Source: Candidatus Rifleibacteriota bacterium (lineage in GTDB: Bacteria; Muiribacteriota; Ozemobacteria; Ozemobacterales; Ozemobacteraceae). Taken from it: a DNA stretch of 64,000 nucleotides. Every line of letters starts with the position of its first letter. The stretch's first letter is position 1. Under the pieces are notes generated by a model. The model saw nothing but the letters and a program-made list of their open reading frames with translations, made no database searches and was not told the DNA's origin. Below, piece after piece: positions 4,996 through 50,875 of this stretch. Where the stretch lies: positions 22,641-86,640 of the forward strand of contig JANJUX010000033.1 of NCBI GenBank assembly GCA_024710355.1, written 5' to 3'. Made by a program: the position numbers and the translations under genes.

Positions 4996-5017
4996 ATATC
5001 TCCCTTATGAAGCCTCT

Positions 5018-5473: not shown

Positions 5474-5494
5474 ATGAATTATCTGCTTTTTCGT

Positions 5495-26517: not shown

Positions 26518-26530
26518 AGAAGGTGATTAT

Positions 26531-27421
26531 ATGCAATTCTGGCTGAGACTGCTTCTCGCCATACTGCTTCTCGGTCTTGTTTCCTACAAGGCCTTCATTC
26601 TGCCGCTGCCAGAAGGCTTCAAGGCCGTAATTGCCCATCTCGGAAAACCCGACCGCATCATCGAAACCCCGGGGGCACACCTTAAATGGCCATGGCCGGT
26701 CGACAATTTCTATCTCTTCGACTGCCGCAACCGCATTTACAACACCCGCTTCACCCAGACTCTGACACGCGATAAAAAGGCCATAATTCTGCTCACCTAC
26801 ATCGTCTGGCGCGTTCAGCAGCCACTCACCTTTCTGCAGTCAGTCGGAACCATGACTAACGCCGAAGACAAGATCGAGGGCCTGGTATCGAGCTCAAAAA
26901 ATAACGTTCTCGGCAACTATGACCTCGCCAACCTCGTGTCAACTGACCCAGCCCAGCTGAAACTTGCCGAAATCGAAAGCCAAATTCTCGAATCGGTCAG
27001 GGAAAAGGCCCGCGAAAGCTTTGGCGTCGAAATCGTCAGCCTCGGCGTCAAGCGACTCGCCTACCCCGAAAACAACATCAAAGCGATATTCAGCCAGATG
27101 CGTGCCGAAAGAGGCCAGTATGCCGCCAAATACCGCGCCGAAGGCCGTATGGAAGCAGCCATCATTCTCTCTGAAACTGACCTCGAAATTGCCCGCATCA
27201 ACGCCGAGGCGGTAAAAACCTCAGCCGAAATCAAAGGCAAAGCCGACCGTGAAGCCGCTGAAATTTATGCCGAAGCTCACAAAAAAGGTCGCGAATTCTA
27301 CAAGTTCAGCCGCTCGCTTGAAGCGCTCGAAAAGATGGTCAATGAAAACGCAGTATTCATTCTGCGCAGTGACCAGGCCCCCTTCGACGCCCTGAACGGA
27401 AACCAGAACGATGGCAACTGA
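26531..27421 (+). CDS. SPFH/band-7 protein, HflC-like.
   Basis: A signal-anchor is followed by an SPFH core (RIIETPGAHLKWPWPVDNFYLFD) and a C-terminal coiled coil. Confidence 0.7.
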   Translation: MQFWLRLLLAILLLGLVSYKAFILPLPEGFKAVIAHLGKPDRIIETPGAHLKWPWPVDNFYLFDCRNRIYNTRFTQTLTRDKKAIILLTYIVWRVQQPLTFLQSVGTMTNAEDKIEGLVSSSKNNVLGNYDLANLVSTDPAQLKLAEIESQILESVREKARESFGVEIVSLGVKRLAYPENNIKAIFSQMRAERGQYAAKYRAEGRMEAAIILSETDLEIARINAEAVKTSAEIKGKADREAAEIYAEAHKKGREFYKFSRSLEALEKMVNENAVFILRSDQAPFDALNGNQNDGN

Positions 27422-28493
27422 CAAAACCCGCACAATCAGCCCGCTGATAAAAACCATCGGTGACTTCATGACCCTGCTGAAGGTAGTCATGGCGCTGGTT
27501 TTTGTCGGGTATTGCCTCTCGGGGCTGACATTGATCAGGCCCGACGAAATCGGTCTGATACTGAGAATGGGTAAACTGCATGGCAGCACACCGGTCGATC
27601 AGATTCTCAACCCCGGCTGGGTTCTTGCCCTGCCAAAACCCTTCGACGAAGTGCTGCGGATTCCGGTCAAACAGATTCAGCAGGTAAAAATCAAAGAGCT
27701 TGCCGCCATCGAAAAAAAAGAAGAGGCAGACTATCGCACGATTGACCCGCTGAATGAGGGTTATTGCGTCAGTGGCGATGCCAACATCTTTCAGGCCAGT
27801 ATACTGGTTAAATACCAGATCAGCGACCCGATAAAAGCTGTTTTCGGCTTCTCGGCATCATATCAGACATTCAGTTCACTCGTGCATGACCTCACTGTCG
27901 CTGAAATGACTCGGGTTGCGGCCGGTTTCCCGATTGACGGGCTTTTGTCCGAAAGCAAAAAAGAGCTGTCAACTCAGGTTAAAGAACGGGTTCAGAAACA
28001 ACTCGACCGGGTTCAAACCGGCCTGGCGCTGGTCTCGCTCGAAATAGAAGAAATTGCACCGCCCACCTACCTCAGGAAAGACTTTGAAGAGGTCAATTCG
28101 GCCTTTATCAACCGCCACAATTTTATCAACGATGCCCGCAGCCTCAGCGAAGAAAAACTGCCGAAAGCCCGCGGCAACGCCGAAGAAATGATTAACAGGG
28201 CCAGGTCTTATCACCAGACCGTTGTTGCCGAGGCAACTGCCAACGCCGGCAGATTCAATCAACTTCTGACTGCCTGGCAGAACAACCCCGAAGAAGTCAG
28301 ACTCGAAATGACCGCTAAAGTTCAGAAACTGGTAATAGAAAAAATGCGGCGCATGGTAGTTGTTCCCGGCGGGTCGGCGGCTGCCGCCGGCGTCAGACTG
28401 ATGTTCGACACCAGCACCGGCTCCTCTCTTCCGGTTCCGACTAACGTCAACCCCGCTTACGACGAGCTTGCAGAAGAGGAAGAAGAAGATTAA
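27411..28493 (+). CDS. SPFH/band-7 protein, HflK-like.
   Basis: An N-terminal TM helix is followed by an SPFH core (IRPDEIGLILRMGKLHGS...GWVLALPKPFDEV), a coiled coil and an acidic tail EEEEED. The stop abuts the ATPase start. Confidence 0.7.
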   Translation: MATDKTRTISPLIKTIGDFMTLLKVVMALVFVGYCLSGLTLIRPDEIGLILRMGKLHGSTPVDQILNPGWVLALPKPFDEVLRIPVKQIQQVKIKELAAIEKKEEADYRTIDPLNEGYCVSGDANIFQASILVKYQISDPIKAVFGFSASYQTFSSLVHDLTVAEMTRVAAGFPIDGLLSESKKELSTQVKERVQKQLDRVQTGLALVSLEIEEIAPPTYLRKDFEEVNSAFINRHNFINDARSLSEEKLPKARGNAEEMINRARSYHQTVVAEATANAGRFNQLLTAWQNNPEEVRLEMTAKVQKLVIEKMRRMVVVPGGSAAAAGVRLMFDTSTGSSLPVPTNVNPAYDELAEEEEED

Positions 28494-30380
28494 ATGACAA
28501 ACGACCGGCAAGCTCCTGCAACTGGCCAGCACTCTGTTGGTCTGAACGGTATTATCAAGCTCAAGCTTGCCAATTCGATTTTTGCAGCAGTCTTTCTGAT
28601 TACCGGCATTGTTCTCGAAATGCTGCTGCCGGAGCAGAAGCAGACAGCCAGACTGATCGTGGCGATTGCCGCCATGGCCGTTTCCCTGCCGGTCTTTATC
28701 AATGGTTTCAAAGGTCTTTTCACCCGCGAACCCTGCTTCATGACCGAGCAGCTGGTGAGTCTGGCGATTCTTGCCGCGATGAGCGAAGGTGAATTCGCAG
28801 TTGCCACGATTATTCCGATAATCATGGTTTTCGGCCATCTGCTCGAAGAAAAGAGTATTATGGGCATCGAAGAAGCGATCGAGTCAATGCGGCGCCTGCA
28901 CTCACGCCAGGCCAGATTGCTGGCTGACGGGCGCGAAACTCTGGTAGAACCGGGCGGACTCAAGCCTGATGATCTGATCGTCTGCTACCCCGGTGAGACC
29001 ATTGCTGCCGATGGCGTGATCAGCGAAGGCGAAACCATGATCAATCAGGCCCCGATAACCGGTGAATCGGTACCCGTCGAGGCTTTTGCCGGGGTCGGAG
29101 TATTTGCCGGCACCATCAATCTCAGCGGCAAAATCTGCATAAAGGTTACCAAAGCCGCTTCTGACACGTTGTTTAACAAAATTCTGCATCTGCTTAAAGA
29201 GGCCGAGGCGTCAAAAGCGCCAATTGTCAAAATTATCGAAAAGTATCTCGGGCTCTATTTTCCGTTTGTCATAATGGTTGCGGCCCTGACCCTCTTTTTG
29301 ACAAGTGATATCAGCCGGGCGGTGGCAATTCTGGTGATAAGCTGCCCGTGTGCTCTGATACTTGCCAGTCCGAGCGCCATGATTGCAGCACTGGTGAGCG
29401 CTGCCCGCCACGGCATCATGATCAAGAACACCGCTTTTCTTGAGCTGCTTGCCGAAATCGACACGGTGATTTTCGATAAAACCGGCACTGTCACACTCGG
29501 CAAGCTTGAAGTCGAAAAAGTGGTAACGCTGCCCGGCAGCGATAATCAGGAAATGCTGAGATACGCAGCCATGTGTGCCAGCGGCTCGATTCACCCGGTT
29601 TCTGCCGCCCTGATCGCCTATGCTCACACGAACGGCATCAGGTTTCCGATACCGGCGGTTCAGAAAGAGCTGCATGGCCGCGGAGTGTCAGCCGAAATCG
29701 ACGGCAAAAGATTCTATCTCGGCAAACCCGGCTGGATAGCAGAAGAAGCCGGCATCACTGCGCCGGCAGATGTGGCCGGCGAAAATGGCATATCAGTCTG
29801 GGTCGCCTCTGAAACAGCCTTTCTTGGCGAAGTAATCTTCTCTGACCGGCCACGCCCCGAAATGCGCCAGGCAATTGACCAGTTGCGCAGCCTTGGCGTC
29901 AAAAATGTCATACTGCTGACCGGCGACCGCAGCCAGATTGGCAATGCCATTGGCAAAGCTCTCGGTGTCGACGCAACGGTCTGCGAATGTCTGCCGCAGG
30001 ATAAACTCAACTACGTCAATAACCGTAAGGCCTGCGGCGAACGGGTAATGTTCGTTGGTGACGGCATAAACGATGCTCTGGCGCTGAAAGCCAGTGATGT
30101 CGGTATTGCGATGGCCCGCGGCGGCACAGATATCGCCATTCAAAATTCTGATATTACTCTTAACACCGATAATCTGCTTAATCTGGCGCGCATGTTCGAT
30201 CTCTCTGAAAAAACACGCGGCATAATCAATCAGAACATTCTCATTGGCACCGGCTTCAGTCTGCTGATGATGGTTCTCGCCTCGATCGGGCTGATCAGCC
30301 CGGTTATCGGGGCCGTCGCCCATAATCTCGGGCCAGTGTTCGTAGTTCTCAACAGCGCCAGAATGCTCAAAGAAAATTAA
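28494..30380 (+). CDS. Heavy-metal-type (P1B) P-type ATPase lacking an N-terminal metal-binding domain.
   Basis: DKTGTVT is the phosphorylation site. The transmembrane metal motif is ISCPCALILASP (CPC). GDGINDALAL is the hinge. There is no HMA/CxxC domain before the first TM helix. The protein is 628 aa. Confidence 0.85.
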   Translation: MTNDRQAPATGQHSVGLNGIIKLKLANSIFAAVFLITGIVLEMLLPEQKQTARLIVAIAAMAVSLPVFINGFKGLFTREPCFMTEQLVSLAILAAMSEGEFAVATIIPIIMVFGHLLEEKSIMGIEEAIESMRRLHSRQARLLADGRETLVEPGGLKPDDLIVCYPGETIAADGVISEGETMINQAPITGESVPVEAFAGVGVFAGTINLSGKICIKVTKAASDTLFNKILHLLKEAEASKAPIVKIIEKYLGLYFPFVIMVAALTLFLTSDISRAVAILVISCPCALILASPSAMIAALVSAARHGIMIKNTAFLELLAEIDTVIFDKTGTVTLGKLEVEKVVTLPGSDNQEMLRYAAMCASGSIHPVSAALIAYAHTNGIRFPIPAVQKELHGRGVSAEIDGKRFYLGKPGWIAEEAGITAPADVAGENGISVWVASETAFLGEVIFSDRPRPEMRQAIDQLRSLGVKNVILLTGDRSQIGNAIGKALGVDATVCECLPQDKLNYVNNRKACGERVMFVGDGINDALALKASDVGIAMARGGTDIAIQNSDITLNTDNLLNLARMFDLSEKTRGIINQNILIGTGFSLLMMVLASIGLISPVIGAVAHNLGPVFVVLNSARMLKEN

Positions 30381-32383
30381 GGCTGCCTGAGATCAAATCT
30401 GATGATGCCGTCGAACAGGTCGATCTGATTGACCTTTACGATAACCTTCTGACCGGGTGTCACGTCAAAATTCGGGCGCCGGCAGTGCCTGAAAGAGCAG
30501 AGAAAATCGACATAAAATGTGACTTCGGTCATGCTGGTATCGACCACAACCCCGTCGTAAAGCAACTCAGCCGATTTCTGCTGCTGTTTGAGGTATTTGA
30601 GCAGAAAATAGCGCTCACGGTCGCGCATGATCTCATCGGCACGAATGACGGCCGTATCGGCGATCATCATCGTCTGATCGAGTTCACTCTGGCTGTAGAC
30701 CGGCGGTCTGCCATTGATGGCAGCCTTGATCTGGCGGTGCAGCAGCAGGTCAGAATAACGCCGCAGCGGCGAGGTGATCTGAGTATAAGAAGCCAGGCCC
30801 AGCGAGCTGTGTCGCCCCGGAACACTGTTAACAACAGTTTTACGCAAAGTTCTCAGCACCGAAAAGAAAGCGACCGGGTCAAATTCTTCGACGGGCGGCA
30901 TATCAACCGGTTCGCCTTCCTGAACGCGGTAGAGACACGGTACCGCGTGTTTGCGACACCATTCAGCGGCGGCATGATTGGCCCAGATCATGAATTCGGC
31001 AATCATGCCCTGAGTCAGATCATCGCGGTTACGTCTTTCGACAAGGATTTCGCCATCGACCACCTTGACGCTGAGCTCCGGCTGACGCGGAAACATCATC
31101 GCGCCGGCGGCCTCACGCTGCTTTTTAAGAACTTCAGCAAACTTCACCGCTTCGGCAAGCCAGGGTTCTGAAGCAAGCAGCCCGTCAGCGGTATCGTAGT
31201 CGAGAGCTCTTTCGATTCTGATCAACGACTCGCTGATCTGCAGATGCTCGAGATTACCGGCAGCCGAAAAATCAAGTTTAAAGGTAAGCGCCAGGCGCTC
31301 GCAGCCCTCAGAGAGGCTGAGAAAATTTTCAGAAATCCCGGTCGGCAGCATGTGAATGCGCTTATCGGGCATATACACCGAACTGCCGCGCCGCGCCGCT
31401 TCTTTGTCGAGAGGTGAGCCGGGCAGAATAAGTTCGGCCGGGTCGGCGACATGCACCCAGAGGCTGCAGCCACCATCTGTGTGCCTGACGAAAGAAAAAG
31501 CATCATCACGGTCTTTTGAACCGGGTGTATCGATTGCCCAGGTTTTCAGACCGGTCAAGTCAGAACGGCTCAAGGAGCTGATATCGACCAGACAAAGATT
31601 ATCGGCTTCAGCGATCAGATCGGCCGAAAATTCAACCGGCAGGCGGTATTTGATTATTGCCAGGTTTTCGTCGGCATCCAGAATTCCAGCACTCACCAGG
31701 GCCTGAAAAAGGCGACGCGGGTCACTGAGACCGGCCTTGTCGAGCGCAGCGGCCAGTCGCTTCGAGATTTTTGCCTCTTCGCCACAGGCAACCAGATTTT
31801 TCAGATCATTGAGATGCTCGACCGGAAAATCGCCGGCAGAGCTTCTGTCACCAAGTTTTTTAAGATGCTCGACCAGCATCGCCTCTTCGCGTTCGACCTG
31901 CTCTTTTCGATTCTGCTGTTCAAGCGCCGTCTTAAGCTCGTCTGACGATAATGGATGCCAGGTGTCGGCCTTGTTTTTAAAGTAAAGGCGATCGTCGCTC
32001 AGGCGCCGCAGCAGGGCTGCAGCCGCATCATCGTCATCAGGCGCAAACAGAAAGCCTGTGAGTTCCTTGAGGCTGTAGGGGCGAATCTCTTCGACCAGCA
32101 GGCTGTGCAGTTCTGCAAGATCAATACCGGCTTCGGTCTGGTTTCGCCGCTGATCGGCTTTAATGAGGTTTTGCCGGCAGGTCTCGCGGTCTGCAACCCC
32201 GGTAACAGCCCGCGAAGTTACATGCAGCACTTTTTTGTCAGGAATGCTTGTTTCTTTGCCGTTCAGCAACAGAAGCCTGACGCTGCCACCGGCGGCACTC
32301 AATATTACACCGGTTTCCGGCCGGCTCCCTTTTGCTGAAAATTCGACGATACAACCGGTCGCCAGGTTCATTGATTTCTCCAT
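30377..32383 (-). CDS. RNB-domain exoribonuclease (RNase II/R family).
   Basis: RNB motifs AIDTPGSKDRDDAFSF and ITSPLRRYSDLLLHRQ are present. There is a C-terminal S1-like segment. Confidence 0.8.
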   Translation of the reverse strand: MEKSMNLATGCIVEFSAKGSRPETGVILSAAGGSVRLLLLNGKETSIPDKKVLHVTSRAVTGVADRETCRQNLIKADQRRNQTEAGIDLAELHSLLVEEIRPYSLKELTGFLFAPDDDDAAAALLRRLSDDRLYFKNKADTWHPLSSDELKTALEQQNRKEQVEREEAMLVEHLKKLGDRSSAGDFPVEHLNDLKNLVACGEEAKISKRLAAALDKAGLSDPRRLFQALVSAGILDADENLAIIKYRLPVEFSADLIAEADNLCLVDISSLSRSDLTGLKTWAIDTPGSKDRDDAFSFVRHTDGGCSLWVHVADPAELILPGSPLDKEAARRGSSVYMPDKRIHMLPTGISENFLSLSEGCERLALTFKLDFSAAGNLEHLQISESLIRIERALDYDTADGLLASEPWLAEAVKFAEVLKKQREAAGAMMFPRQPELSVKVVDGEILVERRNRDDLTQGMIAEFMIWANHAAAEWCRKHAVPCLYRVQEGEPVDMPPVEEFDPVAFFSVLRTLRKTVVNSVPGRHSSLGLASYTQITSPLRRYSDLLLHRQIKAAINGRPPVYSQSELDQTMMIADTAVIRADEIMRDRERYFLLKYLKQQQKSAELLYDGVVVDTSMTEVTFYVDFLCSFRHCRRPNFDVTPGQKVIVKVNQIDLFDGIIRFDLRQP

Positions 32384-32392
32384 ATTTGCTGA

Positions 32393-33490
32393 TCAGCTGT
32401 ATTTTACCACTTTATTGCGATTTTGCCCTGAATTTTTGCTCTTCGCACGGTAAAGTTCGGCAAACCAGCAGCTGATACTCTCCGCCAGACGGTTAAATTC
32501 AGGGTCTTCAACCTCCACTGCCTGCCGGGCAAAAGCAGCAAGATCCGGCCACTCTTCGGTTTCGGCCGCCACTCCGCTGATTTCTCGCGGGCGACCGATC
32601 AGCTGCAGGAGCAGATCTGGAGTGTCGCCCCAGGGGGCAGCTTCTTCAGCCGCCAGAATTTGTGGCTCAGAATCAGCAACGACCGATCTCTGACGGCGCA
32701 GGGACGAAAAAACCCGCAGCGCCGCAAGCAGATCCTGTTGCGATTGTGGCTGCCGGCGATCGATACTTTCACGCCAGACATCGAGACGCTGCAGTTCAGT
32801 CTCGGTTTTATGCTCGACCTCAGCCGGTGAAATACTGATTATGCGCCACGCCAGATGACTTCGTTCGCCGCCAGACCATTCGGTAATATCGCGCCAGTCG
32901 CCATTTTTCAGGTCGCGAAATCTGATGCGCAGGTTCTGGTTAAAACTGGCCATTCTCTTTTTATCAGCTTCGAGACGCCGGTCAGGCTCTGTTCCTTCAT
33001 AATCAGCCAGCAGCCGGCTGGCCCACGGAACCTCAGGAAATACATGCACAAACAGAAAAGCGAGCTGAGCCGTATTTGCATCAGGGTAATCCGCAAGAAA
33101 ATTGCGCACCGTTGCAAAGATTTCGTCGGCAAAAGCAAGTCGAAGTGGTGTAAAACCGGTGCGGCCGACCTCAGGCAGATCGCCGGCCAGCCCGAAGGCG
33201 GTCGCTCGCGCTTGATATGGCCGGGTCAAGCGCTTGAGTTTCTGGTGAACGAACGCCAGAACCGAGCGTGAATGCAGCGCTCGACCGACATTAAAATCTT
33301 CGAGAAGAACCAGCAGCATTTCACTGGCCAGCTCTCTGATCTTCTCTTCGCGCGAAAGGCTCAGCTCGCGCCAGCTGGCAGCAATGTTGTTCAGGTAGCC
33401 GCGACAGCTGACGATCAGGCCAAAAGCAGTCTCGGGGCCAGGTTGCGCCATAAATTTCTGAAGTGCCTCTTCAACACTCGTATTTTGCAT
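32393..33490 (-). CDS. Hypothetical protein (365 aa).
   Basis: A clean ORF. The start was chosen at the second ATG, which is preceded by GAGAGG. It is divergent from the CCxxC operon. Confidence 0.45.
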   Translation of the reverse strand: MQNTSVEEALQKFMAQPGPETAFGLIVSCRGYLNNIAASWRELSLSREEKIRELASEMLLVLLEDFNVGRALHSRSVLAFVHQKLKRLTRPYQARATAFGLAGDLPEVGRTGFTPLRLAFADEIFATVRNFLADYPDANTAQLAFLFVHVFPEVPWASRLLADYEGTEPDRRLEADKKRMASFNQNLRIRFRDLKNGDWRDITEWSGGERSHLAWRIISISPAEVEHKTETELQRLDVWRESIDRRQPQSQQDLLAALRVFSSLRRQRSVVADSEPQILAAEEAAPWGDTPDLLLQLIGRPREISGVAAETEEWPDLAAFARQAVEVEDPEFNRLAESISCWFAELYRAKSKNSGQNRNKVVKYS

Positions 33491-33706
33491 ATTTTGCCTC
33501 TCATACTGCCGTTGCCGCAGGTTTGAATCGACCATCGCCGGCGGATAAAATCACTAATTTTAATGTGACGGGAAACCACCCGTCTTCGAGCATAGCAGAA
33601 GAGTTTGCAGTGTTCCAGAAGGTTTTTTGCAGAATTTTAAAATATTTTTTCCCTTTTTTGTTTTTCAGTTGATTTACCTGTGAAACCAAAAAACGGAGGC
33701 GAACTT

Positions 33707-34180
33707 ATGATGTGCTGCAATGAATGCCCGCTCAACCCGGTAACAGGTTACGCCGAAGAACGTTGCCGACGACCGGTCTGCCTGCAGTCAGAAACGCGCT
33801 GCAAAAGTGGCTTCTGCACCAGCGAACTGGGTGGCCGCTGCCAGCTCGACTTTTATGTGGTCAGAAAGCTGTATCACGGCGACCAGCTGGCCGAAAAACT
33901 CGTTTTTGCCTCGCTGAAATCGGCCATTCTCGGGCGTGATCGGTCTCTTGTGCTCGCAATTTTTCAATCAGCGAGAGAGACCCTGCAGCCGCTGCTCTGG
34001 CGCTGGCTCGAAGTCTACGAGCCCCGCAGTCTCTGGCTTTTGAACCCGGTATTTTCGTCGGCCGGCCTGAGCCCTCTCGATACCTTCAACGAACTCGAGC
34101 CACGGCGTGAAAAGTATCTGAAGGCAATCATGCATAACCCATGCACTGTCAGACAGGCTAGAACGATCTGCGGTCTTTGA
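33707..34180 (+). CDS. Hypothetical protein with an N-terminal CCxxCxLN motif (paralog A).
   Basis: The protein starts MMCCNECPLN. A GGAGG sequence lies 7 nt before ATG 33707. The C-terminal region LWRWLEVYEPRSLWLLNPVF aligns with paralog B. Confidence 0.5.
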   Translation: MMCCNECPLNPVTGYAEERCRRPVCLQSETRCKSGFCTSELGGRCQLDFYVVRKLYHGDQLAEKLVFASLKSAILGRDRSLVLAIFQSARETLQPLLWRWLEVYEPRSLWLLNPVFSSAGLSPLDTFNELEPRREKYLKAIMHNPCTVRQARTICGL

Positions 34181-34193
34181 AAGGAGTTTTCCA

Positions 34194-34694
34194 ATGACCA
34201 CGAACTGCTGCCATAAATGTCGGTTAAATATTGCTTCAACGGCTTTTGACAGCCGAATGTTCACTGTTGTTCCGCTGCCGGCCAGAGATATCTTTATCTG
34301 CAGGCAAAATGGTGCGGGCAGGGCTTTACCCGGGGCTGCACACGCTGAGGTCCGTCTTCTCTGCAGTCGCGATCTCTGGGTGTTGAGCTTTATCGGACAG
34401 AACGAAGCTTTTGCGGTCGAACAGGCCAGTGCAACTCTCGACCGGCTGGTTGCAGGCGGTCACTCAGAACTGCTCTGTCATCTCTTCGAAAATGCCGGCT
34501 ACGAAGTCAGGCGCGACCTGTGGCTGCGCATGACCAGCCTTTACCCGGGCCGGCTTTATCTTTTCGACGCCATTTTTGAACGTGGCTCGCTCGCACCTCT
34601 TGAAAAAGACCGGGCCCCCGAAAAAATGTATTATTACCAACAGCAGATGCTGTTTGGCATCGAAGGTTTAAACCATGAACTCGAAGATTTATAA
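34194..34694 (+). CDS. Hypothetical protein with an N-terminal CCxxCxLN motif (paralog B).
   Basis: The protein starts MTTNCCHKCRLN. An AAGGAG sequence lies 7 nt before the ATG. LWLRMTSLYPGRLYLFDAIF matches paralog A. Confidence 0.5.
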   Translation: MTTNCCHKCRLNIASTAFDSRMFTVVPLPARDIFICRQNGAGRALPGAAHAEVRLLCSRDLWVLSFIGQNEAFAVEQASATLDRLVAGGHSELLCHLFENAGYEVRRDLWLRMTSLYPGRLYLFDAIFERGSLAPLEKDRAPEKMYYYQQQMLFGIEGLNHELEDL

Positions 34695-35346
34695 TCAAAA
34701 AATGACTGCCGGCAAAAAATATTCGATACAAATGCTTATCTCGGGCGGGCAAACGGGCGTAGACCGCGCCGCACTCGATTTCGCTATGGCCATGAAGATT
34801 CCGTGTTCGGGCTGGTGCCCGGCAGGCCGGCGGGCAGAAGACGGCCCCATTGCCGATTGTTACCCGCTGCTCGAAGCCTCTTCTGAACTTTACCAGCAGC
34901 GCACCCGCCTCAACGTCAGAGATTCTGACGCCACGCTGATCATTGCAGACAGTTCGCCGTCAAATGGCACCCGTCTGACAGTCGAATATTGCCAGAAAAT
35001 GCGCAAACCGTTTCATATTCTTAATTCTGAAGCATTTTTTGACCGGCCCCCAAAACTAAAGGCCCTGAGCTCCCCAGCAATAGAGGTGCCTGAGAATGAG
35101 TCACACCGGCAGAAAAATACCGATAACCTTAGCGATGCCGAGTGGTTTGAAGTGGCTGAAACCCTGAACTGGCTGCATAAAACCAGGCCGGGCATTCTCA
35201 ATATTGCCGGGCCAAGAAAAAGCGAAAGCCCCCAGACAGAACTGCTGGCCCGATCGCTTCTGAGAATGCTTTTCGTCCCCTCAAAAATGTCTACACCAGT
35301 CTGGCCACCCAGAAGACCGATCACCAGAACCCTAAATTTCGGCTAG
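34675..35346 (+). CDS. SLOG-superfamily protein of the 'putative molybdenum-cofactor carrier' (PF12694-like) family.
   Basis: LISGGQTGVDRAALDFAMAMKIPCSGWCPAGRRAEDGPIADCYPLLEASSELYQQRTRLNVRDSDATLII...LNIAGPRKSESP matches the family consensus ISGGQTGxDRAAL...GGWCPxGRxAEDG...RTxxNVRDSDxTL...NVAGPRES. The start is uncertain among ATG 34675, 34702 and 34732. Confidence 0.65.
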   Translation: MNSKIYNQKMTAGKKYSIQMLISGGQTGVDRAALDFAMAMKIPCSGWCPAGRRAEDGPIADCYPLLEASSELYQQRTRLNVRDSDATLIIADSSPSNGTRLTVEYCQKMRKPFHILNSEAFFDRPPKLKALSSPAIEVPENESHRQKNTDNLSDAEWFEVAETLNWLHKTRPGILNIAGPRKSESPQTELLARSLLRMLFVPSKMSTPVWPPRRPITRTLNFG

Positions 35347-35440: not shown

Positions 35441-36004
35441 TTACCTGATGATTTTCAGAGAAAAACCGCTCTTTCCGGCAGATTCGCCGAGCTTGTTCTG
35501 AAATGGGTAATCATCGACACTTTGCTCATTCAAGAAAAAGGAATCGGTGGCGGCAGTCGTGTCAGTCTGACTCCAGTCCCAGGTTCTGGCTTCGCCGGTA
35601 TAAATCTGAAAGCTTGAGTTAGAAGCCAGATTTACCGAAGCCTGCCAGAACTGCTTGCCGGCGCCTGTGCCCCAGAGATGCTTTCTTGTCGTGGAATCGT
35701 AAATATCGCTGCTTCTAAGAAACCCTTCGGTTTTAAGAGTTTCGAGAACCTTGGCAATTGAAGCCGGAGCATCAGCATGGTCAGGGTCGAAATTTTCTTC
35801 CCAGGGCTGCCATGTATGAGAAGCTATTTTCATAAGGTCGAAAGCTTCACGTATCTGACTGATGTCTGTGTTTAAGCCAGCTTCAGCCAGACGACGATTA
35901 AGAATCTCTTCTGAAGGACCAATCTGTTGGGCAATAATAGCACCAATCGACAGGAGGATCAGAAGCAAAAGAATAACAGTTCCGGCCCGGTTATTTTTTT
36001 TCAT
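35441..36004 (-). CDS. Membrane-anchored periplasmic protein, hypothetical. There is a weak resemblance to a pseudopilin/GspG-like fold.
   Basis: MKKNNRAGTVILLLLILLSIGAIIAQQ is a signal-anchor without the canonical GFTLIE motif. The C-terminal part is Trp/Asp-rich. Confidence 0.45.
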   Translation of the reverse strand: MKKNNRAGTVILLLLILLSIGAIIAQQIGPSEEILNRRLAEAGLNTDISQIREAFDLMKIASHTWQPWEENFDPDHADAPASIAKVLETLKTEGFLRSSDIYDSTTRKHLWGTGAGKQFWQASVNLASNSSFQIYTGEARTWDWSQTDTTAATDSFFLNEQSVDDYPFQNKLGESAGKSGFSLKIIR

Positions 36005-36107
36005 GGTCCCAACCATAACCAGCAATAGTCCTATTGCGTAATATCTTTAACAACTGCTAGAATTATAACGATTTGCAAAACATGAGGGAAGCCGTATAAA
36101 AAAAAGG

Positions 36108-37502
36108 TTGGCAGTGATTTTTTGCTCGATTCTTCTGTTATTTATAACAGATGAGCTTTTTTCCAGCTCTCAAACACCACCGAAAGCTTCAAACATTGAA
36201 TTGGCGCATCTCAGACAGACCAGAAATGCTTCCGACAGTCTGTCTTTAAAAGCCGAAATGGCACGCAGCAAGGCTGCCGCCAGAATTTTCGGGGGCAAAA
36301 GAGTAGTCAACTTCACCCCCCGTCGCGATTTCCTCGGAACAAGAGAGTTTGAGCTGCAACGAATTATTGGGCTCAAGCCGGCAAGCGACAGCCTGCAACT
36401 GGCGCTGGAACATAAAAAGCAGTTTTCCCGCCCCAGACTGGAACTCGATGAATTTATCGCACTCTGCCACTGGGAAACCGGAAATATAGAAGAGGCCGTA
36501 AAACTAAGTAATGAGGTTCTGAACAAGAAAGAAAGTGTCAGCCTCCGGCAAAAGCTTTTCAATTCAGAGCTCAATCGTGGCTATTACGACACCGCAAAGC
36601 ACCACCTGAAACACTCAGGGCTCCCCAGAATCGCCCATTTAAAATCTCTCCTGCATTTCTTCTATTTGCGTTCAGGCCTGTATGCTTTTCTTTTCTGGGT
36701 GTTTTTACTGGTTACTTTAGGTGCGCTCGCCATCAGATTTTTTCTGCAATTATTCCCATTTGAAAAATTCAGTCAATTTTTCTTTCACAGACATAAAATA
36801 CAAACCACGACCGGTTTCCCTCTCAGTGAACCTGCAGTTATTTCACAAAAACCTGCTGGCAGCGAAAATCAGAGCAGCACGTCCGAAACAGTCACAAATC
36901 AGGACTCAACGCCCCTCCAGGGAACTAATTCCGACCTTCCTGCCAGCAAAGCTCAGTCAACGACACGACTACAGATGTTTGAAGAACTGGTTACCAGCAA
37001 AATGCTGCGGGTTATCGGTGTTTCATCGCAAAAAGAAAGTTTCAACCGCCTGGCACTGGCTCTTAAGCTTGCGATAAATTTTTCCAAAGCAGATTTTCAG
37101 ACCCTTATCATCGATGCCAACAGTTCAAAACCATATATCCATGAGATCAAAACCTGTAAAAGTTCTCCCGGCCTTTCTGACTGCTTCAATCAGACATTCG
37201 AAATCGAAACTTTCTGTCAGAAAACCAGTAGCCCCAACCTTAGAATTCTGGCTCGCGGCAGCCAGGTCATGCCATTGGCTGTTCTGCAGCCACATCAATG
37301 GAAAAGCCTGATACAGGCCTGTCAAAAAAGCTTCGACATCGTAATCGTCAATTTTCCCGGCATAATCAACCTGAAAGATAATCCAGAAACCCTGCAATCG
37401 GTTGAAATACTGGTGATAGATGGCACGGCAGACCCAGAAATCGAGATATACAAACCAATTGGAGCTGAAACAGAGCTTTATTTCTGGAACAGGAAGGGTT
37501 GA
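36108..37502 (+). CDS. BY-kinase/ParA-like P-loop homologue with a degenerate Walker A (pseudo-kinase) and one TM helix. Low-GC gene.
   Basis: The C-terminal domain reads MLRVIGVSSQKESFNRLALALKLAINFSKADFQTLIIDAN...SPGLSDCF...NLRILARGSQVMPLAVLQPHQWKSLIQACQKSFDIVIVNFPGI. It parallels the CpsD/Wzc-type BY-kinase consensus (VIxVTSxxPGEGKST...LLIDxD...GLSxxL...NLxVLxxGxxPPNP...YDxIIIDTPP), but the GEGKST motif is replaced by QKESF. It starts with TTG, and the start is uncertain. Confidence 0.5.
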   Translation: MAVIFCSILLLFITDELFSSSQTPPKASNIELAHLRQTRNASDSLSLKAEMARSKAAARIFGGKRVVNFTPRRDFLGTREFELQRIIGLKPASDSLQLALEHKKQFSRPRLELDEFIALCHWETGNIEEAVKLSNEVLNKKESVSLRQKLFNSELNRGYYDTAKHHLKHSGLPRIAHLKSLLHFFYLRSGLYAFLFWVFLLVTLGALAIRFFLQLFPFEKFSQFFFHRHKIQTTTGFPLSEPAVISQKPAGSENQSSTSETVTNQDSTPLQGTNSDLPASKAQSTTRLQMFEELVTSKMLRVIGVSSQKESFNRLALALKLAINFSKADFQTLIIDANSSKPYIHEIKTCKSSPGLSDCFNQTFEIETFCQKTSSPNLRILARGSQVMPLAVLQPHQWKSLIQACQKSFDIVIVNFPGIINLKDNPETLQSVEILVIDGTADPEIEIYKPIGAETELYFWNRKG

Positions 37503-37506
37503 GGAC

Positions 37507-40500
37507 ATGAAACAACAGACTTATAAACGGCTTAAAACAACAATAAACCGCCTGCAGCTCATGATCACCATTGCAATAATATTTTTCACAACTGTATTAA
37601 TTCGGTCTGTAGAAGCCCAGCCTTATCCTCCAATCAACATCACAGTAAATTCCCTGGCGACTTACAACCAGATAACCTGGGGGCATCACCCGCAGAACAC
37701 CGCAGGCTATGTCAAGAACTACCAGATCTGCCGGGGCATCAGCTACGGAGCCACCGCTCAGATTGCCACTGCAGCGGCTACTGCAACTTCTTTCAACGAC
37801 AATACCGTCGGACATGCCTTTGAAAAAGAGTTTTATTACACTGTACGCGCCCTCGGAACAGACGATCTGCCATCGGCAGATTCAGAACAGGTCATGCGCT
37901 TTCTGCCCACAGTAGGGCTTACCGGCACGGGCATGGGTATCAATACAATCAACAGCGTTCAATATGGCTCCTGGAAACCTTATCCCGGCCAATGGACAGA
38001 CACATATACGTATATCAGCACTACCCCAAACGGAACGAGCAATGGCTCCGATTACCCTCACAGGCAGATTATACGGGCAAGTCGGGCACTGTCTCTTACT
38101 GAAGGAACTACCTACTACCTGCGCGTCAGGATCGATGCTCCAGACTGGTGGGGAAGTCCAGCAGCGAGAAGAGCAGTTTCTTATTCCAGTTCCCTGCCAT
38201 TTGTCATTAACTCAACGGTTCCATATGAGGATAACGCCTCTTCGACTTACTTCAACAATTCACAGAACCGGGTTATGGCCGAACCACTTGCCACCGGCGG
38301 AGTCGGAACGACGCTTTTCAGCAATAACGGGGGTAATTTCTGGCGTATCCGCAGACCCGTGGGTGTCAGCGCTCATGTCAATAACCTTGTTTTTCCATCC
38401 GTAACCCCGAATGCTGCTACCCCAGCCAGAATTAATTCGCCGTGCCGCGTTGTGATTACAGGTATACCTGCGGGCGAAATTGCCGCAACTCGTGCTGACG
38501 ACGAGGTCAGGGTTGCCGACCAGTATGGCAACGAGTTGCCCTGCGTCGTTTATAACGAAACGACCGCAGCCGGATCGGTTACAGGTTTTGACGTTCACTT
38601 CATCACCAGCCAGGACGGCACAGCCCAGGAAATCTACTGGATTTACTGGGGCAACCCCGATGCATCCGTTCCGACTTATACAAACCCGGGGTTTTCTGAT
38701 AACTTTTCAACAACTTCGCAGTTCGCGGTTTCTCCATGGTATTCGCGCCGAATTCACCGCGGCGGTATCGAAACAGCAAGCGTACCTTTCAACGACCCGA
38801 GCAGGTTGATTCCAGATCCGCCCAGTCCCATAGATGACATGTCGGCATCGAAGGTCCTGGGCTTTGTATTTCCTCATTTCGACTTTGCAACCAATACGGT
38901 CAACGTTTCTACCAACGGCTACATCTCGTTCCCGCCAGATTCCCAGCCACTAAACGATATGGCTGTTTTTACCGGGGCGGGTCCCAACCGTTTCATCGCA
39001 CCTTTCTGGTGCAATCTTATGGAAAACGATGCCGTTCCCTCGAATGCCGGGCTTTACTATCACAATCTCGACAGCGGCACAGCAGCAAGACATCGCGCCA
39101 TGTTCACCTGGCGGGCCAATCGCTTCAATGCTACAACCGAAAGTTACATTTTTCAGGCGGCCCTTTATCGGCAGGGTGACATAGCCTTTCGCTACGAAAC
39201 TCTCAATTTCGGCGCATTAACAACAGTTCCATCACTCTCGGGCGACAACCCGATCAATGTCCCGCCACACCACACAGCCGGAATAAGTGCGACTGACGGT
39301 AATCGCTGGCTCGGCATCACCGATGGCACGACCAGCCAGGAAGTCGTTTCCCTTCGCGATGGCTCAGGAAGAAATGTTATTCATTATTTTCAGTCCTGCC
39401 ACGGCTGGACAATAAATCTTGGCTACACCGACCCGACAAACACCTGTTCCATGGCCGGGCCAACCTGCGTCGCCGATTACGAATCGAGAATTTTCGATGG
39501 CCGCAGTTCTGCCCCGACCTGGACCAATATGGAATACCAGATTACTGGTACCGGTCTTATAGACCTGTATGTCAGAAGCTCGGGCACCACGAACTTTCCG
39601 GCCTGGAACGCCGGGCACCTTGTTGGCGCGAACCTGGCTGCAAGCACCGGGGTAATAAATCTGACGCTGCCGACAGACCGTTATGTTCAGTATAAAGCCG
39701 TCTTCAAAAAGAGTAACAGTGGCGAAAACCCGGTTTTGCGGCGTGTCAAATTCAGTGTCGGTTATGTAACGATTGACAGCGTCACAAATCAGTATAACAA
39801 CCTCGACGTATCGCAGGGCCAGACATTTCTGGCATCGATGACCTACACGAACAAATACTCGAACCCTGTCGACACGATTACAGCCTCCTTGACCTTTACC
39901 CCCGCCTCTGCAATTCAGACATGGGTTCAGACTTCGCCCCTGCCGACAGGTGTTCTGACAGATACTTCAGCCACCGTCAGCTTTTCGATCTCCGTCGACC
40001 AGAACTCAGGCAATCTCGATGCTTGGACTGTAGTCAACGGCTACCTCTCAGCCGGGGACGGATTAGCGACTCTTACAAATTCAACCGCGCTCGTAACCAG
40101 CCAATACCGCATCCGAAGAAAGGCAGATCTTATCATAAATTCTGTCGATACCACCTTCGAAAAAGTTAACAAGGGCCAGGGTGGCATACCGGTTCAGATG
40201 ACGATCAGCAATGGCTCCCCCCAGGTTCCGCTCGTCCTGCAGACTGCCTCGCTGACCTTTTCTCTTGGGCAATACACACTTTCTCCTGAATTTGTTTTTG
40301 ACCCTGCGGACCAGGGCCTTTTTGGCTCATACTTTTACACGACGACAGGCAACCCACCGCCTTTTCCGACGCAGGCCAGTGCAACCCGGCTCGATAGTAC
40401 GGTAAATTTTAACTGGGGTGCTGCCAGTCCAATTCCCGGAGTTATCAGTGCCGATTATTTCGCCGTGCGCTGGAGTGGCTATGTAATCCCTGAATTCAGT

Positions 40501-43500
40501 GAAGACTACACATTCTATTTCTGGGCCGACGATGGCGTAAGAGTTTGGGTTAACGGGCAGATTATCATCAATTCGTGGGTTACATCAGCATCCGAAAAAA
40601 CTTCTGTGTCTGTGCCACTCACAGCCGGAGTTCCGGCAGAGATTGTCATAGACTATTACGAGCGCGCCAGCAATGCCAGAGCCGAATTAAGCTGGTCATC
40701 GCCGTCTCAGGCCAAACAGACTGTTCCGACTGCTCGCCTCAAGCCGGCATATCTGCCGGTCATTCATGGTGGGCAATCAATAACTCTCAATTATACCGTG
40801 GCAGTTCAACCAACATCTCCTTCTGGGGTTGCATATATCAAGGGCATCGCGTCTGGCACTAACGCCTGGGTGCCTGGCCTGGTAACAGACTCAAACAGCC
40901 CGCTCGTATTCGACTCCTGGATAATTCAATCGCCGGCAAGCCTTTCTATCGGGCTGATAAAGGCTCCTGCGGTAGTTTACCGTGGTCAGGCAAATGTTCC
41001 GGTTGAAGTTGAAATAATCAATACCGGAGAAGCTGATGCCCAGATTGCCTCAATTCCTCTTTTCATCTCACTTGGAGACTATGAAAACATAATACCAGGG
41101 CAAATAATGCCGGTAACGATTACCGGCGGACAGAGCAAATTCATCAAGGTTCTGGTCTCGATTCTCGAAAGTACTGCGACCGGCAGTGCGATTATCGACG
41201 CAGAAGTATCAGGAACCGACGTCAACAATGGTTCGTCACTTTCAACCGCTGGTGCAGCAGTGCCAGGTGAATGGACAGTTCTTGCAGAAAAGATCCTTTC
41301 GTATAAAGATCCATCGTATCTTTATCCTTCCAATGCTTTTTCGCAGCCTGACTCTGGCGAAACCTTCATCTATGCCCTTGCAGAAAACCTGGTTCCTCTC
41401 AAAGAATACGGAATCCGCTGGTATGATGCCTCCGGCTCCGAGATTATCTCTGCAACCACGATAGGCTTTTCTGATAATACCGGCAAACTTGCCGGAGAAT
41501 GGTCGATAACCTCTGCCACAGACTTTGGTGTTTACACAGTTAAAATAACTAACCCGGTGAACACCTATTCGCCCTCACAAACCAACTTCAGAGTCGTGAC
41601 CAGCGCTTCGGTTTCAGCAACACTTGAATTGCCTCAGAAGGTTTCAGTCGGGCAGGCATTTCAGGGCAGGATGGTCATAACTAATATCGGTGGTGCAGAG
41701 GCTGCCGGCATGGTACCAGACCCACTCACCATAGCCGGGCCTGGAACTGCAAATCTCACGTCTGGCCCATCACCAGCAGCAATAGACGTTCCGGGTGAAA
41801 GCACCGCCACCATAACCTACAACTATACGGCAACTGGTCAGGGCAATTTTCAGATTTCGGCTGGAGACAGTGGTTTTGATGCCAGCAATGACAAAGCAAT
41901 CCAGGCGGCCTACATCGATTCAAACCTTTGTCTGATTCAAACCCCTGCCATAATAGATATCGTCTCCCTCACTGCAACACCTACAATTGTCTACCGTGAT
42001 CAGAAAAATATTGAAGTGATGATGGCCCTGCAGAATACTGGGGAAGCTGACGCAATAATCAGTCTCGCCGATCTTCGTTCACCGCCCAACAATAACCTTT
42101 CGTTTGCCACATTCACCCTGGCATCCCCGACGATCCCGGCAACTGTGCCGGGCAACAGTACTGCAACCTTTACCTTCAGAGTAAATATCAACGGCACTGC
42201 CCCGGCCGGACCAGCTGTAATGACGGCAAGAGCCAGTTATACAGATGCGAACAATCCCACAACTCCCGCCACGCTGATCAACCAGACCCTTTCCTGGACA
42301 ATCAACACCGCGAACCTTCTCCTTTACATCAATAACACTTTTACGACCCCATGTTACGCATTCAATGACGGATCAACCGTATTCGCACGAGCTTCCGGGC
42401 TTGCAACCAACACCAACGTCAGAATACGATTTTATGAAAGCACAGAGCCATACCCACCCGTAGACGTTGGCGTTGGAATTTTGACCCCGCTCAACACCGG
42501 CGATACCGGAATAGTGTCTCACCCCGGGCATCTGATACCGCCTGGAACTGACAAACTGCAAAGATGGATGGCAGTTGTAGACGATGGCGATGACGCGACC
42601 GTAGGCAATATCTTTGCGGTACAGTTCTTTGATGTCTTCAGCCTGGCAACCTTCTCAGTAAGCCTCGAAATTGCCAGCCCCACATGCTTTGTCGGTGATC
42701 TGGTAAACGCCAATCTGACGATTAACAATATCGCGACCTGGCCAACCAACGTTCGTCTTTACCTTAATTCATTTAATCACAGCTACCTTGCCCACAGCGC
42801 CGGCACATTTAACAGAATCAGCGCTCAAACCGGGGTTTACCAGCCGTCTCCAAGCGGCTCTTCCAGGACTTACAATTCTGTACTGCAGGCAACTAACGAT
42901 TCGGCAATTGAAGGCAGCTCATACATCACCATTCCGGGCAATTCTTTACGTTTGTATGATGACAGTTTCGGGGTAACGAACTACTACACCAATTATCCTC
43001 TGCAGATAAACGCCCAGAGCCCCACACGGGTTTTTCGCAACAACTTCAGGCTGGAAACTCTGCCACAACCTTCTGCTGAGCCAGGATTACGTGGAGAATA
43101 TTATAATCTGATAGCAGTTAACGCAACTCAACCAATGCCGATCAGTGACCCGGCAACCACAACGATCAATGCGAATGTCAACTTCAACTGGGGAGGGGGC
43201 TCGCCGGCTCCAGGGGTCGTAAACACTGATTACCATGCAGTCCGTTGGAGTGGCCTGGTAACTCCTGACTTCAGTGAAAATTATACCTTTTTTGCCCGCA
43301 CCGATGACGGTTTTAGATTGTGGGTGAATGGCAATCTGATTTACGAAGATTGGGTCACACGGGCAGCTATAGAAAGAAGCGGTTCTATAGCTTTAACAGC
43401 CGGAGTACCTGTACCGATTGTTTTAGAAATGTTTTCAAATACTGGCACCTCGATCGCTGAACTAAGATGGCAAAGCCCATCAGTAGCCAAAAGCATTATA

Positions 43501-48384: not shown

Positions 48385-48621
48385 GGAACTTCTGTTCCTT
48401 TCAGTTTTAAGAAACCATAAATGTTTCGTAGAATCGGGTTGATACACTTTCCCGTTTTCTTCTATCGGTCGAATTGTGAGAATCTTTAATCAACCAACAA
48501 TTTTTTTATGCAACCCCCGGGGCTTTATTTTGCCTTCTGATGTAGTATGAAGTTTGACACATTCTTTCGGGCTGTGATAAGTTTTTGTGCACAGTTCAAT
48601 TAATACGACAGGAACCGCTTA

Positions 48622-49941: not shown

Positions 49942-49963
49942 TAAAAAAAGAGGTGTCTGGCTG

Positions 49964-50875
49964 ATGTTTCTGCCCAACAGACGAGCCGTAACCTTCATCG
50001 AGATAGTCATCGCCGTGGCCATTCTGGCGGTGGCTCTGATTCCTCTTTTCGGCCTGATCAGCCGGCAGACGGTCGAAACCGACAAAAACGCCGCCCAGGC
50101 CTTTGCGATTAACAAGGCATCAGAAGTGCTCAACACGATTCTCGATAATGTGCCGTTTGCAGCCCTGCGCCAGGGCAACCCCGGCTATGTGAAAACCGAC
50201 GATCTGGCTGCCAACCCGAGGTTTTCACGCTATAACGACAGCTGGGCCAGAAAAATCATGCCGATTCTCTTCCCCGGCTCTCAAAAAGAGGCCGCCGGTT
50301 ACCCATGCCGCGGTATCGTTACCGACTCACGCGGCATTCACTACCTTGTACATCTTCGTGTCGAAGACGTCGCATCAGAACGCAAACCGCCCAAATCCGA
50401 AAAAATACAGATCGGCAATTCTTTCCCCGATGGCAAACCCAAAGATTTTGCCGAATCTCCGGAGCTGACCTTCACCTTTCTGCGAAACCCAGGCATGATC
50501 TCCGATGGCTCCTGGGTTCAGGATTATTCTGAAGATCCCGAAGAAACCAGCAAACCATTCTCAGAACTCGATATTGGCTCTGGCAAGGGTGTATCTGAAG
50601 CCCCCGGCAATGTTTATCTCGATCAGGGCATGGAAGGCCTCGATGCGAACGCTCCCCGCTTCACCAACCCGACGGCTGAACGATACACGGCGAAGATGGT
50701 CACCGAAAAAGTCCTTCATGACGCACCCGAAAAATTTGCCTGGTGCTCGATGAAAAAACTCGTGGTGCAGGTGCAATGGAACCTGGATCAGCGCTATTTC
50801 AAAAACCCCGAAGAAAAGAATGGCCGCATCCAGAGAATCCATCTGATGACCATCAAGGGGGATATCGACGGATGA
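49964..50875 (+). CDS. Prepilin-type N-terminal domain protein (minor pseudopilin-like), 303 aa.
   Basis: MFLPNRRAVTFIEIVIAVAILAVALIPLFGL is a class III signal peptide plus hydrophobic helix (consensus G/A-FTLIE, with Glu at +5). A GAGGTG RBS is present. The ORF-track start at 49841 was rejected. Confidence 0.6.
   Translation: MFLPNRRAVTFIEIVIAVAILAVALIPLFGLISRQTVETDKNAAQAFAINKASEVLNTILDNVPFAALRQGNPGYVKTDDLAANPRFSRYNDSWARKIMPILFPGSQKEAAGYPCRGIVTDSRGIHYLVHLRVEDVASERKPPKSEKIQIGNSFPDGKPKDFAESPELTFTFLRNPGMISDGSWVQDYSEDPEETSKPFSELDIGSGKGVSEAPGNVYLDQGMEGLDANAPRFTNPTAERYTAKMVTEKVLHDAPEKFAWCSMKKLVVQVQWNLDQRYFKNPEEKNGRIQRIHLMTIKGDIDG

Follow-up and report, generated by a model that had tools for sequence, protein, structure and literature searches.

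Within a 64,000-nucleotide stretch of the genome of a Candidatus Rifleibacteriota bacterium (GenBank assembly GCA_024710355.1, contig JANJUX010000033.1, positions 22,641 to 86,640 of the forward strand; hereafter the window), three consecutive genes, here called A, B, and C, lie in an order that is retained across one candidate bacterial phylum. A and B encode paralogous Cys-rich proteins of an undescribed family, and C encodes a SLOG-superfamily protein of the circularly permuted YpsA (cpYpsA) type. We consider it fairly probable that A, B, and C form a functional module. The fuller proposal, in which A and B serve as an adaptor for the SLOG protein and the module is connected with nucleic-acid turnover, we hold at even odds at best.

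Results

A and B are paralogs under purifying selection

Gene A (positions 33707–34180, forward strand) encodes a protein of 157 amino acids (aa). The mechanically called open reading frame (ORF) opens earlier, at GTG 33680, but ATG 33707, with GGAGG 7 nt upstream, yields a protein beginning MMCCNECPLN, and the 22 homologs of A (157–183 aa) begin with the same MMCC. Gene B (34194–34694, forward strand) encodes 166 aa from ATG 34194, with AGGAG 7 nt upstream; 42 homologs were found. An earlier examination of the letters alone (the sequence-only reading) had described three ORFs, two paralogs followed by a SLOG gene, with consensus Shine-Dalgarno sites at A and B. This description is borne out by the ORF list and by direct comparison of the two proteins. 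A and B are genuine paralogs: BLASTP aligns them at 22% identity over 150 aa (E 3e-9), and profile–profile comparison of the two family alignments with hhalign gives 97.5% probability (E 7.6e-12 over 123 columns). The C-terminal segment that the sequence-only reading found common to both proteins falls within the aligned helical domain described below. In comparisons with the nearest genomes (74–87% amino-acid identity), the ratio of nonsynonymous to synonymous substitution rates is low for A (0.11–0.13), B (0.13–0.14), and C (0.16–0.25), and all three are therefore functional coding genes under purifying selection.

A Cys-rich module precedes a predicted helical domain

Orthologs of A contain eight conserved Cys within their first 45 residues (C3, C4, C7, C20, C25, C32, C37, and C45), whereas orthologs of B have C6, C9, C36, and C57, plus C95 inside the helical domain, the second four-Cys set of A being gone. 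A third form, which we call I-type, is found as the second gene of the pair and again has eight Cys, in the invariant patterns CC-x2-C, C-x4-C, C-x2-C, and C. Set beside zinc-ribbon or treble-clef Cys4 modules, in which two knuckles of the CxxC type provide the four metal ligands, the I-type proteins have C-x2-C twice (two CxxC knuckles) together with C-x4-C, A has a single CxxC with its other Cys singly spaced, and B has a single CxxC with two further Cys far from it. Family-wide invariance is limited to four Cys, namely the N-terminal C-x2-C pair, one residue in the middle of the module, and one directly before the helical domain, the last of these sitting in a nearly invariant C-x2-D motif. 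The sequence-only reading had taken CC-x2-C as the family motif; most B orthologs have a single Cys at that place, and the motif that holds family-wide is instead C-x2-C-[P]-[LF]-N. We propose that the four invariant Cys constitute one shared Cys4 site, which is putatively a metal site. The second four-Cys set in A and I-type proteins would then be a second presumptive metal site, so that the B protein of the window appears to have lost one of two. The forms also differ in charge, with family median isoelectric points that are basic for A (8.8) and acidic for B (6.1) and I-type (5.6).

The residues that A and B have in common are four Cys, one Asp, and a series of hydrophobic positions; apart from the Cys and this one Asp, nothing polar or catalytic is conserved in the alignments. 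Because the shared residues are limited in this way, A and B look more like binding or structural proteins than like enzymes. The ligand-synthesis system suggested by the sequence-only reading thus loses its footing, there being no enzyme-like signature in either protein, and a binding, adaptor, or sensor role appears more plausible for the pair.

Structure prediction with AlphaFold2 suggests that A and B share this architecture, an N-terminal Cys-rich module followed by an α-helical domain of ~100 residues. In the model of A, the helical domain of ~100 aa has a predicted local distance difference test (pLDDT) score of 85–92 for most of residues 45–145, and the N-terminus falls below 50. The model of B has a mean pLDDT of 75.6 and a predicted template modeling score of 0.71, and residues 10–40 are also confident. 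Foldseek searches with the models (A and B against the PDB; B against BFVD) returned noise only, with generic helical-repeat or designed bundle proteins at E ≥1.7. Neither protein matches Pfam, NCBIfam, PADLOC, or PDB sequences, so that the match to a well-known family that would have told against the sequence-only reading is not seen, and profile searches of the PDB with the A and B alignments returned nothing at E ≤10. Proteins A, B, and I-type constitute an undescribed, phylum-restricted family without recognizable fold relatives.

The family is confined to Rifleibacteriota

The 22 relatives of A and 42 of B were recovered by a word-indexed search of 5.8 billion proteins. Those that carry names come from metagenome-assembled genomes (MAGs) of Candidatus Riflebacteria, Rifleibacterium, or Ozemobacteraceae, the exceptions being one 'Erysipelotrichia' and one 'uncultured bacterium'. 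When a joint A+B profile was run exhaustively with HMMER over 1.84 billion cluster representatives, 36 proteins came up, the named ones being riflebacterial or suspected mislabels. A further scan of one genome per GTDB species was seeded by the A alignment, the combined A+B alignment being too divergent as a seed; it found 30 loci, and nearly every locus named down to phylum is from Riflebacteria, the block being present as well in two MAGs labeled 'Avigastranaerophilus' and one labeled 'Erysipelotrichia'. The A/B family is confined to one candidate phylum, Rifleibacteriota. The window itself belongs here as well, its C protein being 99% identical to a protein from a MAG of Candidatus Rifleibacterium sp., a genus within phylum Candidatus Rifleibacteriota.

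Some MAGs with other labels also carry the A-B-cpYpsA genes, namely 'Candidatus Avigastranaerophilus sp.' (loci L021 and L022) and 'Erysipelotrichia bacterium' (loci L024 and L037; proteins P0024 and P0137). Locus L024 also carries U and RNase II, the two divergent genes described below. These other-phylum labels are probably taxonomic mislabels or reflect contaminated bins.

In the gene tree of the family, the first gene (A) is monophyletic across both major organismal clades. The second gene is either I-type with eight Cys (Ozemobacteraceae-like genomes, L027, and L044) or B-type with four to six Cys (the clade of the window). Two separate lineages have a single copy, one I-type gene followed by cpYpsA (L042/L043 and L047). 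There are also two independent natural fusions, P0066 (274 aa) and P0070 (243 aa), in which a complete A is joined to a second helical domain without a Cys module. Taken together, the gene tree, the single-copy I-type lineages, and the fusions of A to a helical domain suggest that the functional unit may be a dimer of two helical domains, which would have been a homodimer first, then an A–B heterodimer, and would have become fused in some lineages.

Gene C encodes a cpYpsA protein with a clade-specific tail

Gene C ends at position 35346 on the forward strand and could begin at either of two codons. From ATG 34675 it encodes 223 aa and overlaps B by 20 nt, as the sequence-only reading had it; from ATG 34702 it encodes 214 aa and begins 7 nt past the B stop codon. 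Because distant orthologs open at a conserved M-x-KY-x-[IV]-x-M-[IL]-ISGG motif 0–10 nt past the B stop codon, ATG 34702 is the likelier start, and the overlap would in that case give way to a short gap.

The assignment of C to the SLOG family PF12694, already made in the sequence-only reading, is well supported (Pfam E 1.4e-48, with 164.7 bits against a gathering cut-off of 26.2; structural-genomics entry PDB 3imk E 8e-25). A circularly permuted SLOG Rossmannoid topology is predicted for C, and the match to 3imk, whose structure is solved, lends this indirect support. The accompanying description as a 'molybdenum-cofactor carrier' did not fare as well. That label is historical, surviving in database names for C such as 'putative molybdenum carrier protein', and Pfam now describes PF12694, formerly 'MoCo_carrier', as the circularly permuted YpsA SLOG family. 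This is a very large family, with more than 7,900 clusters at E 1e-5 among the matches listed. The columns GGQTGVDRAAL, GWCPxGRRAEDG, RTxxNV, GT-LT, and NxAGPR do not vary among members from within the phylum and from beyond it, and an alignment shows that all of them are kept in C, which is a bona fide member of the family. Because all of these family-invariant columns are kept, the basic activity of C is probably that of the cpYpsA family. There is no significant match of C to the LOG and DprA Pfam models; precomputed PF02481 (DNA_processg_A) hits are listed for several riflebacterial orthologs of C and are faint where graded.

Two features set C apart from the family at large. One is an insert of ~40 aa that the alignment shows to be specific to the sub-clade of the window. 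The other is a riflebacteria-specific C-terminal tail (...PVWPPRRPITRTLNFG). All riflebacterial C orthologs have a C-terminal extension ending WPP-x-[RK]P-x-T-x2-L-F. Among the best 120 cpYpsA hits, WPP is present in 77 and WPR in two more, and the tail vanishes from the ranking about where non-riflebacterial sequences begin, all 77 WPP hits lying above that point. Every C that adjoins an A, B, or I-type gene in loci L001–L043 carries the tail, and the four non-riflebacterial cpYpsA loci have neither the tail nor A/B. The tail may be a docking-like motif for lineage-specific helical partners.

Outside the phylum, sampling of PF12694 genes gave three contexts in four loci, none adjoining A/B-like genes, with cpYpsA either standing alone or having a GYD-domain gene on one side and, convergent on the other, a Zn-ribbon NUDIX gene. 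The co-occurrence of PF12694 and CCxxC genes in other genomes, which the sequence-only reading had entertained, thus extends to many riflebacterial genomes, but the two are not adjacent in the four loci sampled elsewhere. The GYD, cpYpsA, and NUDIX genes of the non-riflebacterial loci L039–L041 (~4668–6092) lie beside cytochrome c maturation genes. This GYD/NUDIX context is in keeping with the NAD/ADP-ribose theme that has been put forward for YpsA-clade proteins (PMC6459960, PMC9503650) and may be a separate clue to cpYpsA function.

A, B, and C belong to a conserved five-gene block

The genes A, B, and C are consecutive and on the same strand at 22 of the 26 species-level loci with enough flanking sequence, so the neighborhood described in the sequence-only reading is kept well beyond the window. 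They are also adjacent at the metagenome locus L044, and at L047 a single I-type gene is followed by cpYpsA. The exceptions are L020, which is rearranged past B; L023 and L031, in which the order is A, a gene for a paralog of single-stranded DNA-binding protein (SSB), and B; and L028, which has A and an I-type gene without C. A and the second gene are kept together in L020, L023, and L028, where C has been lost. The A–B gap is −4 to 25 nt in nearly all loci (13 nt in the window), and the B–C gap is ≤10 nt in about half of them.

Divergent from A lies gene U (32393–33490, reverse strand), which encodes a conserved protein of ~365 aa known from a 16-ortholog alignment. Its true start is Met16 of a 380-aa ORF, with GAGG before it. 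The next gene encodes an RNase II-family exoribonuclease (30377–32383, reverse strand) with RNB, HTH_RNase_II, and wH_RNase_II domains (Pfam RNB E 1.1e-71). U and the RNase II gene are co-oriented, U lying 9 nt upstream in the window and, according to the gene calls there, 13 nt upstream in L005. U matches nothing in Pfam, NCBIfam, or the PDB, and a PDB profile search with the U alignment returned nothing at E ≤10. The three-gene arrangement with duplicated partners described in the sequence-only reading is real as far as A-B-C is concerned, but the unit that is kept is larger, including U and RNase II, and some lineages have a single copy or a fused form instead of the duplicated pair.

This block, with RNase II and U reading in one direction and A, B, and C in the other, is intact while its flanks take at least three arrangements. 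In the sub-clade of the window, the block is flanked by SPFH and P-type ATPase genes. In Rifleibacterium-like genomes, DUF4097 and x202 are on the left and LysM and PIN-PhoH on the right. In Ozemobacteraceae, PdxA is on the left and x202 and DUF4097 are on the right, inverted, which looks like the pattern expected from inversion of the whole block. PIN-PhoH is close to the block in many loci. The gene for an SSB paralog lies within the A/B operon at four loci from three MAGs (L021, 6490–6978; L022, ~6438–6980; L023, 6935–7315; L031, 2–217), in the arrangement SSB-A-B-C or A-SSB-B within one sub-lineage. In L023 and L031, a convergent gene encoding a ~1600-aa fusion of RecQ-like and UvrD-like helicases comes next, and cpYpsA is not adjacent.

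The GC content of the locus is uniform with its surroundings. Because there are no PADLOC hits and the locus combines uniform GC content, a shared syntenic location, and strong purifying selection, A-B-cpYpsA appears to be a core-genome operon specific to Rifleibacteriota and not a mobile or defense element.

A promoter-like element precedes A

Several signals are those of an operon: A, B, and C share a strand, the gaps between them in the window are 13 nt and 7 nt (or a 20-nt overlap), and a conserved element stands before A. This promoter-like element, TTTCCC-N16-TGATT(TA), occupies positions 33648–33674 on the forward strand and ends 32 nt before the A start codon. A second copy, TTTCCC-N16-TGATT (33549–33575, reverse strand), faces the U–RNase II operon. 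The intergenic region between U and A is 114–340 bp long, and TTTCCC is present in it in 13 of 14 diverged genomes, against a shuffle maximum of 7 in a k-mer test. The exact pattern is found upstream of A at 21 of 43 loci, several of which are redundant copies, and lies ~30–60 nt upstream of A in L005–L043. The 64-kb window has two occurrences where 0.43 would be expected, both in the U–A intergenic region and one per operon. Because the exact pattern occurs on the U side only in the window among the loci examined, we give the U-side copy little weight; as a sign of co-regulation, it may be due to chance. The same element is present upstream of PIN-PhoH in L011, L015, L016, and L019, and the PhoH promoter of the window has an ordinary TTGACA with a TG-extended −10. 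The element may be a variant, phylum-specific housekeeping promoter rather than the mark of a regulon. A simple scan found weak promoter-like sites shortly upstream of C and a single terminator-like hairpin within A, terminator-like sites being fewer than the shuffled expectation, and no RNA element turned up in the operon or its vicinity when Rfam and tRNA scans were run.

Discussion

We propose that A and B would act as a heterodimer, born from the duplication of a single eight-Cys gene whose product was probably homodimeric. The dimer would be metal-dependent through its Cys modules and would bind the cpYpsA SLOG protein, possibly via the C-terminal WPP-x-RP-x-T-x2-L-F peptide of the latter. 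In this capacity, A and B would be an adaptor or regulator, dependent on metal or redox state, for an activity that binds or processes nucleotides, and that activity would connect with the turnover of single-stranded nucleic acids or nucleotides. Metal binding, heterodimerization, docking of the tail, and the link to RNA turnover are features that we infer from sequence patterns. A partnership between A and B is suggested by their retention together without C, by the natural fusions, and by the basic character of A versus the acidic character of B and I-type proteins. A partnership with C is suggested by the co-distribution of its tail with A/B and by the single-copy lineages, which keep an eight-Cys I-type gene beside cpYpsA. 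The nucleic-acid theme comes from neighboring genes, which are RNase II in the block, the SSB paralog, the RecQ and UvrD helicase, and PIN-PhoH.

Known SLOG proteins offer analogies for parts of this proposal. The SLOG domain of DprA binds single-stranded DNA. LOG enzymes act on nucleoside monophosphates, including products of RNA breakdown (PMC9503650). LOG N-glycosidases and DprA share the SLOG superfamily with C and suggest by analogy how a SLOG protein might be connected with RNase II and SSB, which would lend the nucleic-acid idea some biochemical plausibility. YpsA of Bacillus subtilis belongs to the 'YpsA proper' clade of SLOG proteins, is a small stand-alone protein encoded in a conserved housekeeping neighborhood (ypsA-gpsB), and is proposed to work via protein partners and to have NAD or ADP-ribose-like molecules as ligands (PMC6459960). 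C is of the same SLOG clade, but Pfam places it in the circularly permuted family, and it comes from another phylum, has other partners, and has no evident link to cell division. Compared with the cpYpsA family as a whole, C differs in its clade-specific tail, in the insert of its sub-clade, and in having A/B partners, which do not accompany cpYpsA where it was sampled elsewhere. We regard the pairing of A, B, or I-type genes with cpYpsA, the tail, and RNase II as a lineage-specific variant of SLOG-centered gene neighborhoods, and nothing indicates a new kind of mechanism.

Several observations weigh against the proposed module and against the role we assign to it. All genomes that carry the block belong to one phylum, so the linkage may in part be inherited synteny. 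Four genomes have A/B without an adjoining cpYpsA. Because the B–C gap is 34–466 nt in those loci where it is not short, C may have its own promoter. The interactions of A with B and of A/B with C are putative, and the neighbors behind the nucleic-acid theme are housekeeping genes of a common kind. For A and B, neither a homolog outside the family nor a fold match was detected, so their biochemical role is read from composition and pattern. In the literature collection searched, no paper on PF12694 and no experimentally defined function for cpYpsA or the 'putative molybdenum carrier' came up.

The first of these concerns can be put as an alternative in its own right, in which A/B and cpYpsA would be unrelated housekeeping genes that have remained adjacent since a common ancestor. 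The confinement of the family to one phylum is what such a history would leave, as are the other neighbors of cpYpsA elsewhere or the lack of any (solo, or with GYD and Zn-ribbon NUDIX genes), the loss of adjacency to C in L020, L023, L028, and L031, and B–C gaps of up to 466 nt. Against this, order and strand are retained among orthologs with identities down to ~43%, the flanks have been rearranged at least three times about an intact block, and the spacing is tight or overlapping. The co-distribution of the clade-specific cpYpsA tail with A/B and the persistence of I-type genes beside cpYpsA in single-copy lineages also speak for more than shared descent, and we judge inherited synteny by itself to be unlikely, though it deserves consideration. 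A different possibility takes its cue from the Cys modules. Among small helical proteins of the cytoplasm, WhiB-like iron-sulfur (Fe-S) proteins and zinc-associated anti-sigma factors (RsrA, for example) depend for their function on a four-Cys (or Cys/His) metal center containing CxxC, and A and B, which are likewise small, cytoplasmic, and helical with four to eight invariant Cys, could be Fe-S or Zn thiol redox sensors that regulate transcription of the U–RNase II operon and of their own operon, cpYpsA being merely co-expressed. The compact divergent intergenic region of 114–340 bp with its conserved element, and the pattern facing both operons in the window, would suit such regulators. However, A and B have no similarity to Wbl, zinc-associated anti-sigma, or any other regulator family in sequence or fold: the Wbl and zf-HC2 Pfam models give no hit, there is no conserved His before the CxxC and no H-x3-C-x2-C, the helical domain is larger, and no DNA-binding motif was detected. 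No adjacent sigma factor has been identified either, U having no sigma-factor similarity, and the U-side copy of the promoter pattern is found only in the window. We therefore regard transcriptional redox sensing as distinctly unlikely. The related idea that U is a sigma factor and A/B its anti-sigma factor was rejected on an hhalign comparison of the U profile with E. coli RpoE (0.3% probability), which is a weak test.

Two further alternatives start from the SLOG protein. Published comparative genomics (PMC6459960 and PMC9503650, both citing Burroughs et al. 2015) assigns SLOG domains of the YpsA clade to conflict systems in which signals derived from NAD or ADP-ribose are sensed or processed, and the operon could accordingly be a toxin–antitoxin-like system for conflict or defense, with cpYpsA as sensor or processor of a nucleotide signal and A/B as effectors or immunity proteins. 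We give hardly any credence to this possibility. The block contains no nucleotide cyclase, TIR, effector nuclease, or pore gene; neither signal-generating nor effector domains of the kind that mark SLOG-centered conflict systems were found in the block or its flanks; and A/B are under strong purifying rather than diversifying selection. PADLOC matches are only noise, and the chromosomal context is shared phylum-wide, with a uniform composition that is not island-like. A reading of the locus as a defense island was discarded on the PADLOC result, composition, and shared syntenic location. The cofactor version of the sequence-only reading, in which the operon would serve the synthesis or carriage of a ligand or metal cofactor and A/B would be metallochaperones or biosynthetic enzymes, draws on the 'putative molybdenum carrier protein' label of C and on the abundant conserved Cys of A/B. 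It is very improbable as well. The label is a historical one for what Pfam treats as a YpsA-type SLOG family, no genes for molybdenum cofactor, Fe-S assembly, or other biosynthesis are present in the block or close by, and A/B are without conserved polar or catalytic residues apart from the Cys and one Asp.

The proposal of a functional A-B-C module can be extended to the whole block. All five genes (U, RNase II, A, B or I-type, and cpYpsA) might form one phylum-specific machine, in which A/B would recruit the SLOG enzyme via the WPP peptide to the degradation of RNA or single-stranded nucleic acids, and the enzyme would process or sense the nucleotides released. This extension is speculative and in our judgment distinctly unlikely, but if true it would be the first biochemical setting defined for the cpYpsA family. 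Short of that, the phylum-wide operon offers testable partners for one cpYpsA clade, namely the new family of Cys-rich helical proteins, the clade-specific tail that resembles a docking motif, and RNase II by its linkage, and the single-copy, duplicated, and fused forms are natural controls. The A/B family and its block can also serve as a synteny marker for Rifleibacteriota that flags probable taxonomic mislabels among MAGs. The impact is limited by the uncultivated state of the lineage and by a function that is deduced.

Other features of the window

Just upstream of the RNase II gene, positions 24814–30380 hold three SPFH/Band 7 paralogs (24814–26517, 26531–27421, and 27411–28493) followed by a P-type ATPase gene (28494–30380). 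On the other side of the block, an insertion of ~11.7 kb (35441–47001) separates C from the LysM gene (47077–48447), whereas in other Rifleibacterium-like genomes cpYpsA is immediately followed by LysM and PIN-PhoH. The insertion encodes a 194-aa protein with an N-terminal hydrophobic segment (35441–36025, reverse strand), a 464-aa protein with a Wzc-like tyrosine-kinase ATPase domain (36108–37502), and a 3193-aa protein with two PA14 domains (37420–47001). Beyond LysM, positions 48622–52478 contain a PIN-PhoH (PhoH2-like) gene and then several genes with prepilin-type N-terminal methylation motifs (pseudopilins), and many Rifleibacterium-like genomes carry these PIN-PhoH and pseudopilin genes in synteny with the block. 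The sole Rfam/ARAGORN match in the window is a tRNA-Leu (CAA) at 10973–11058 on the reverse strand.

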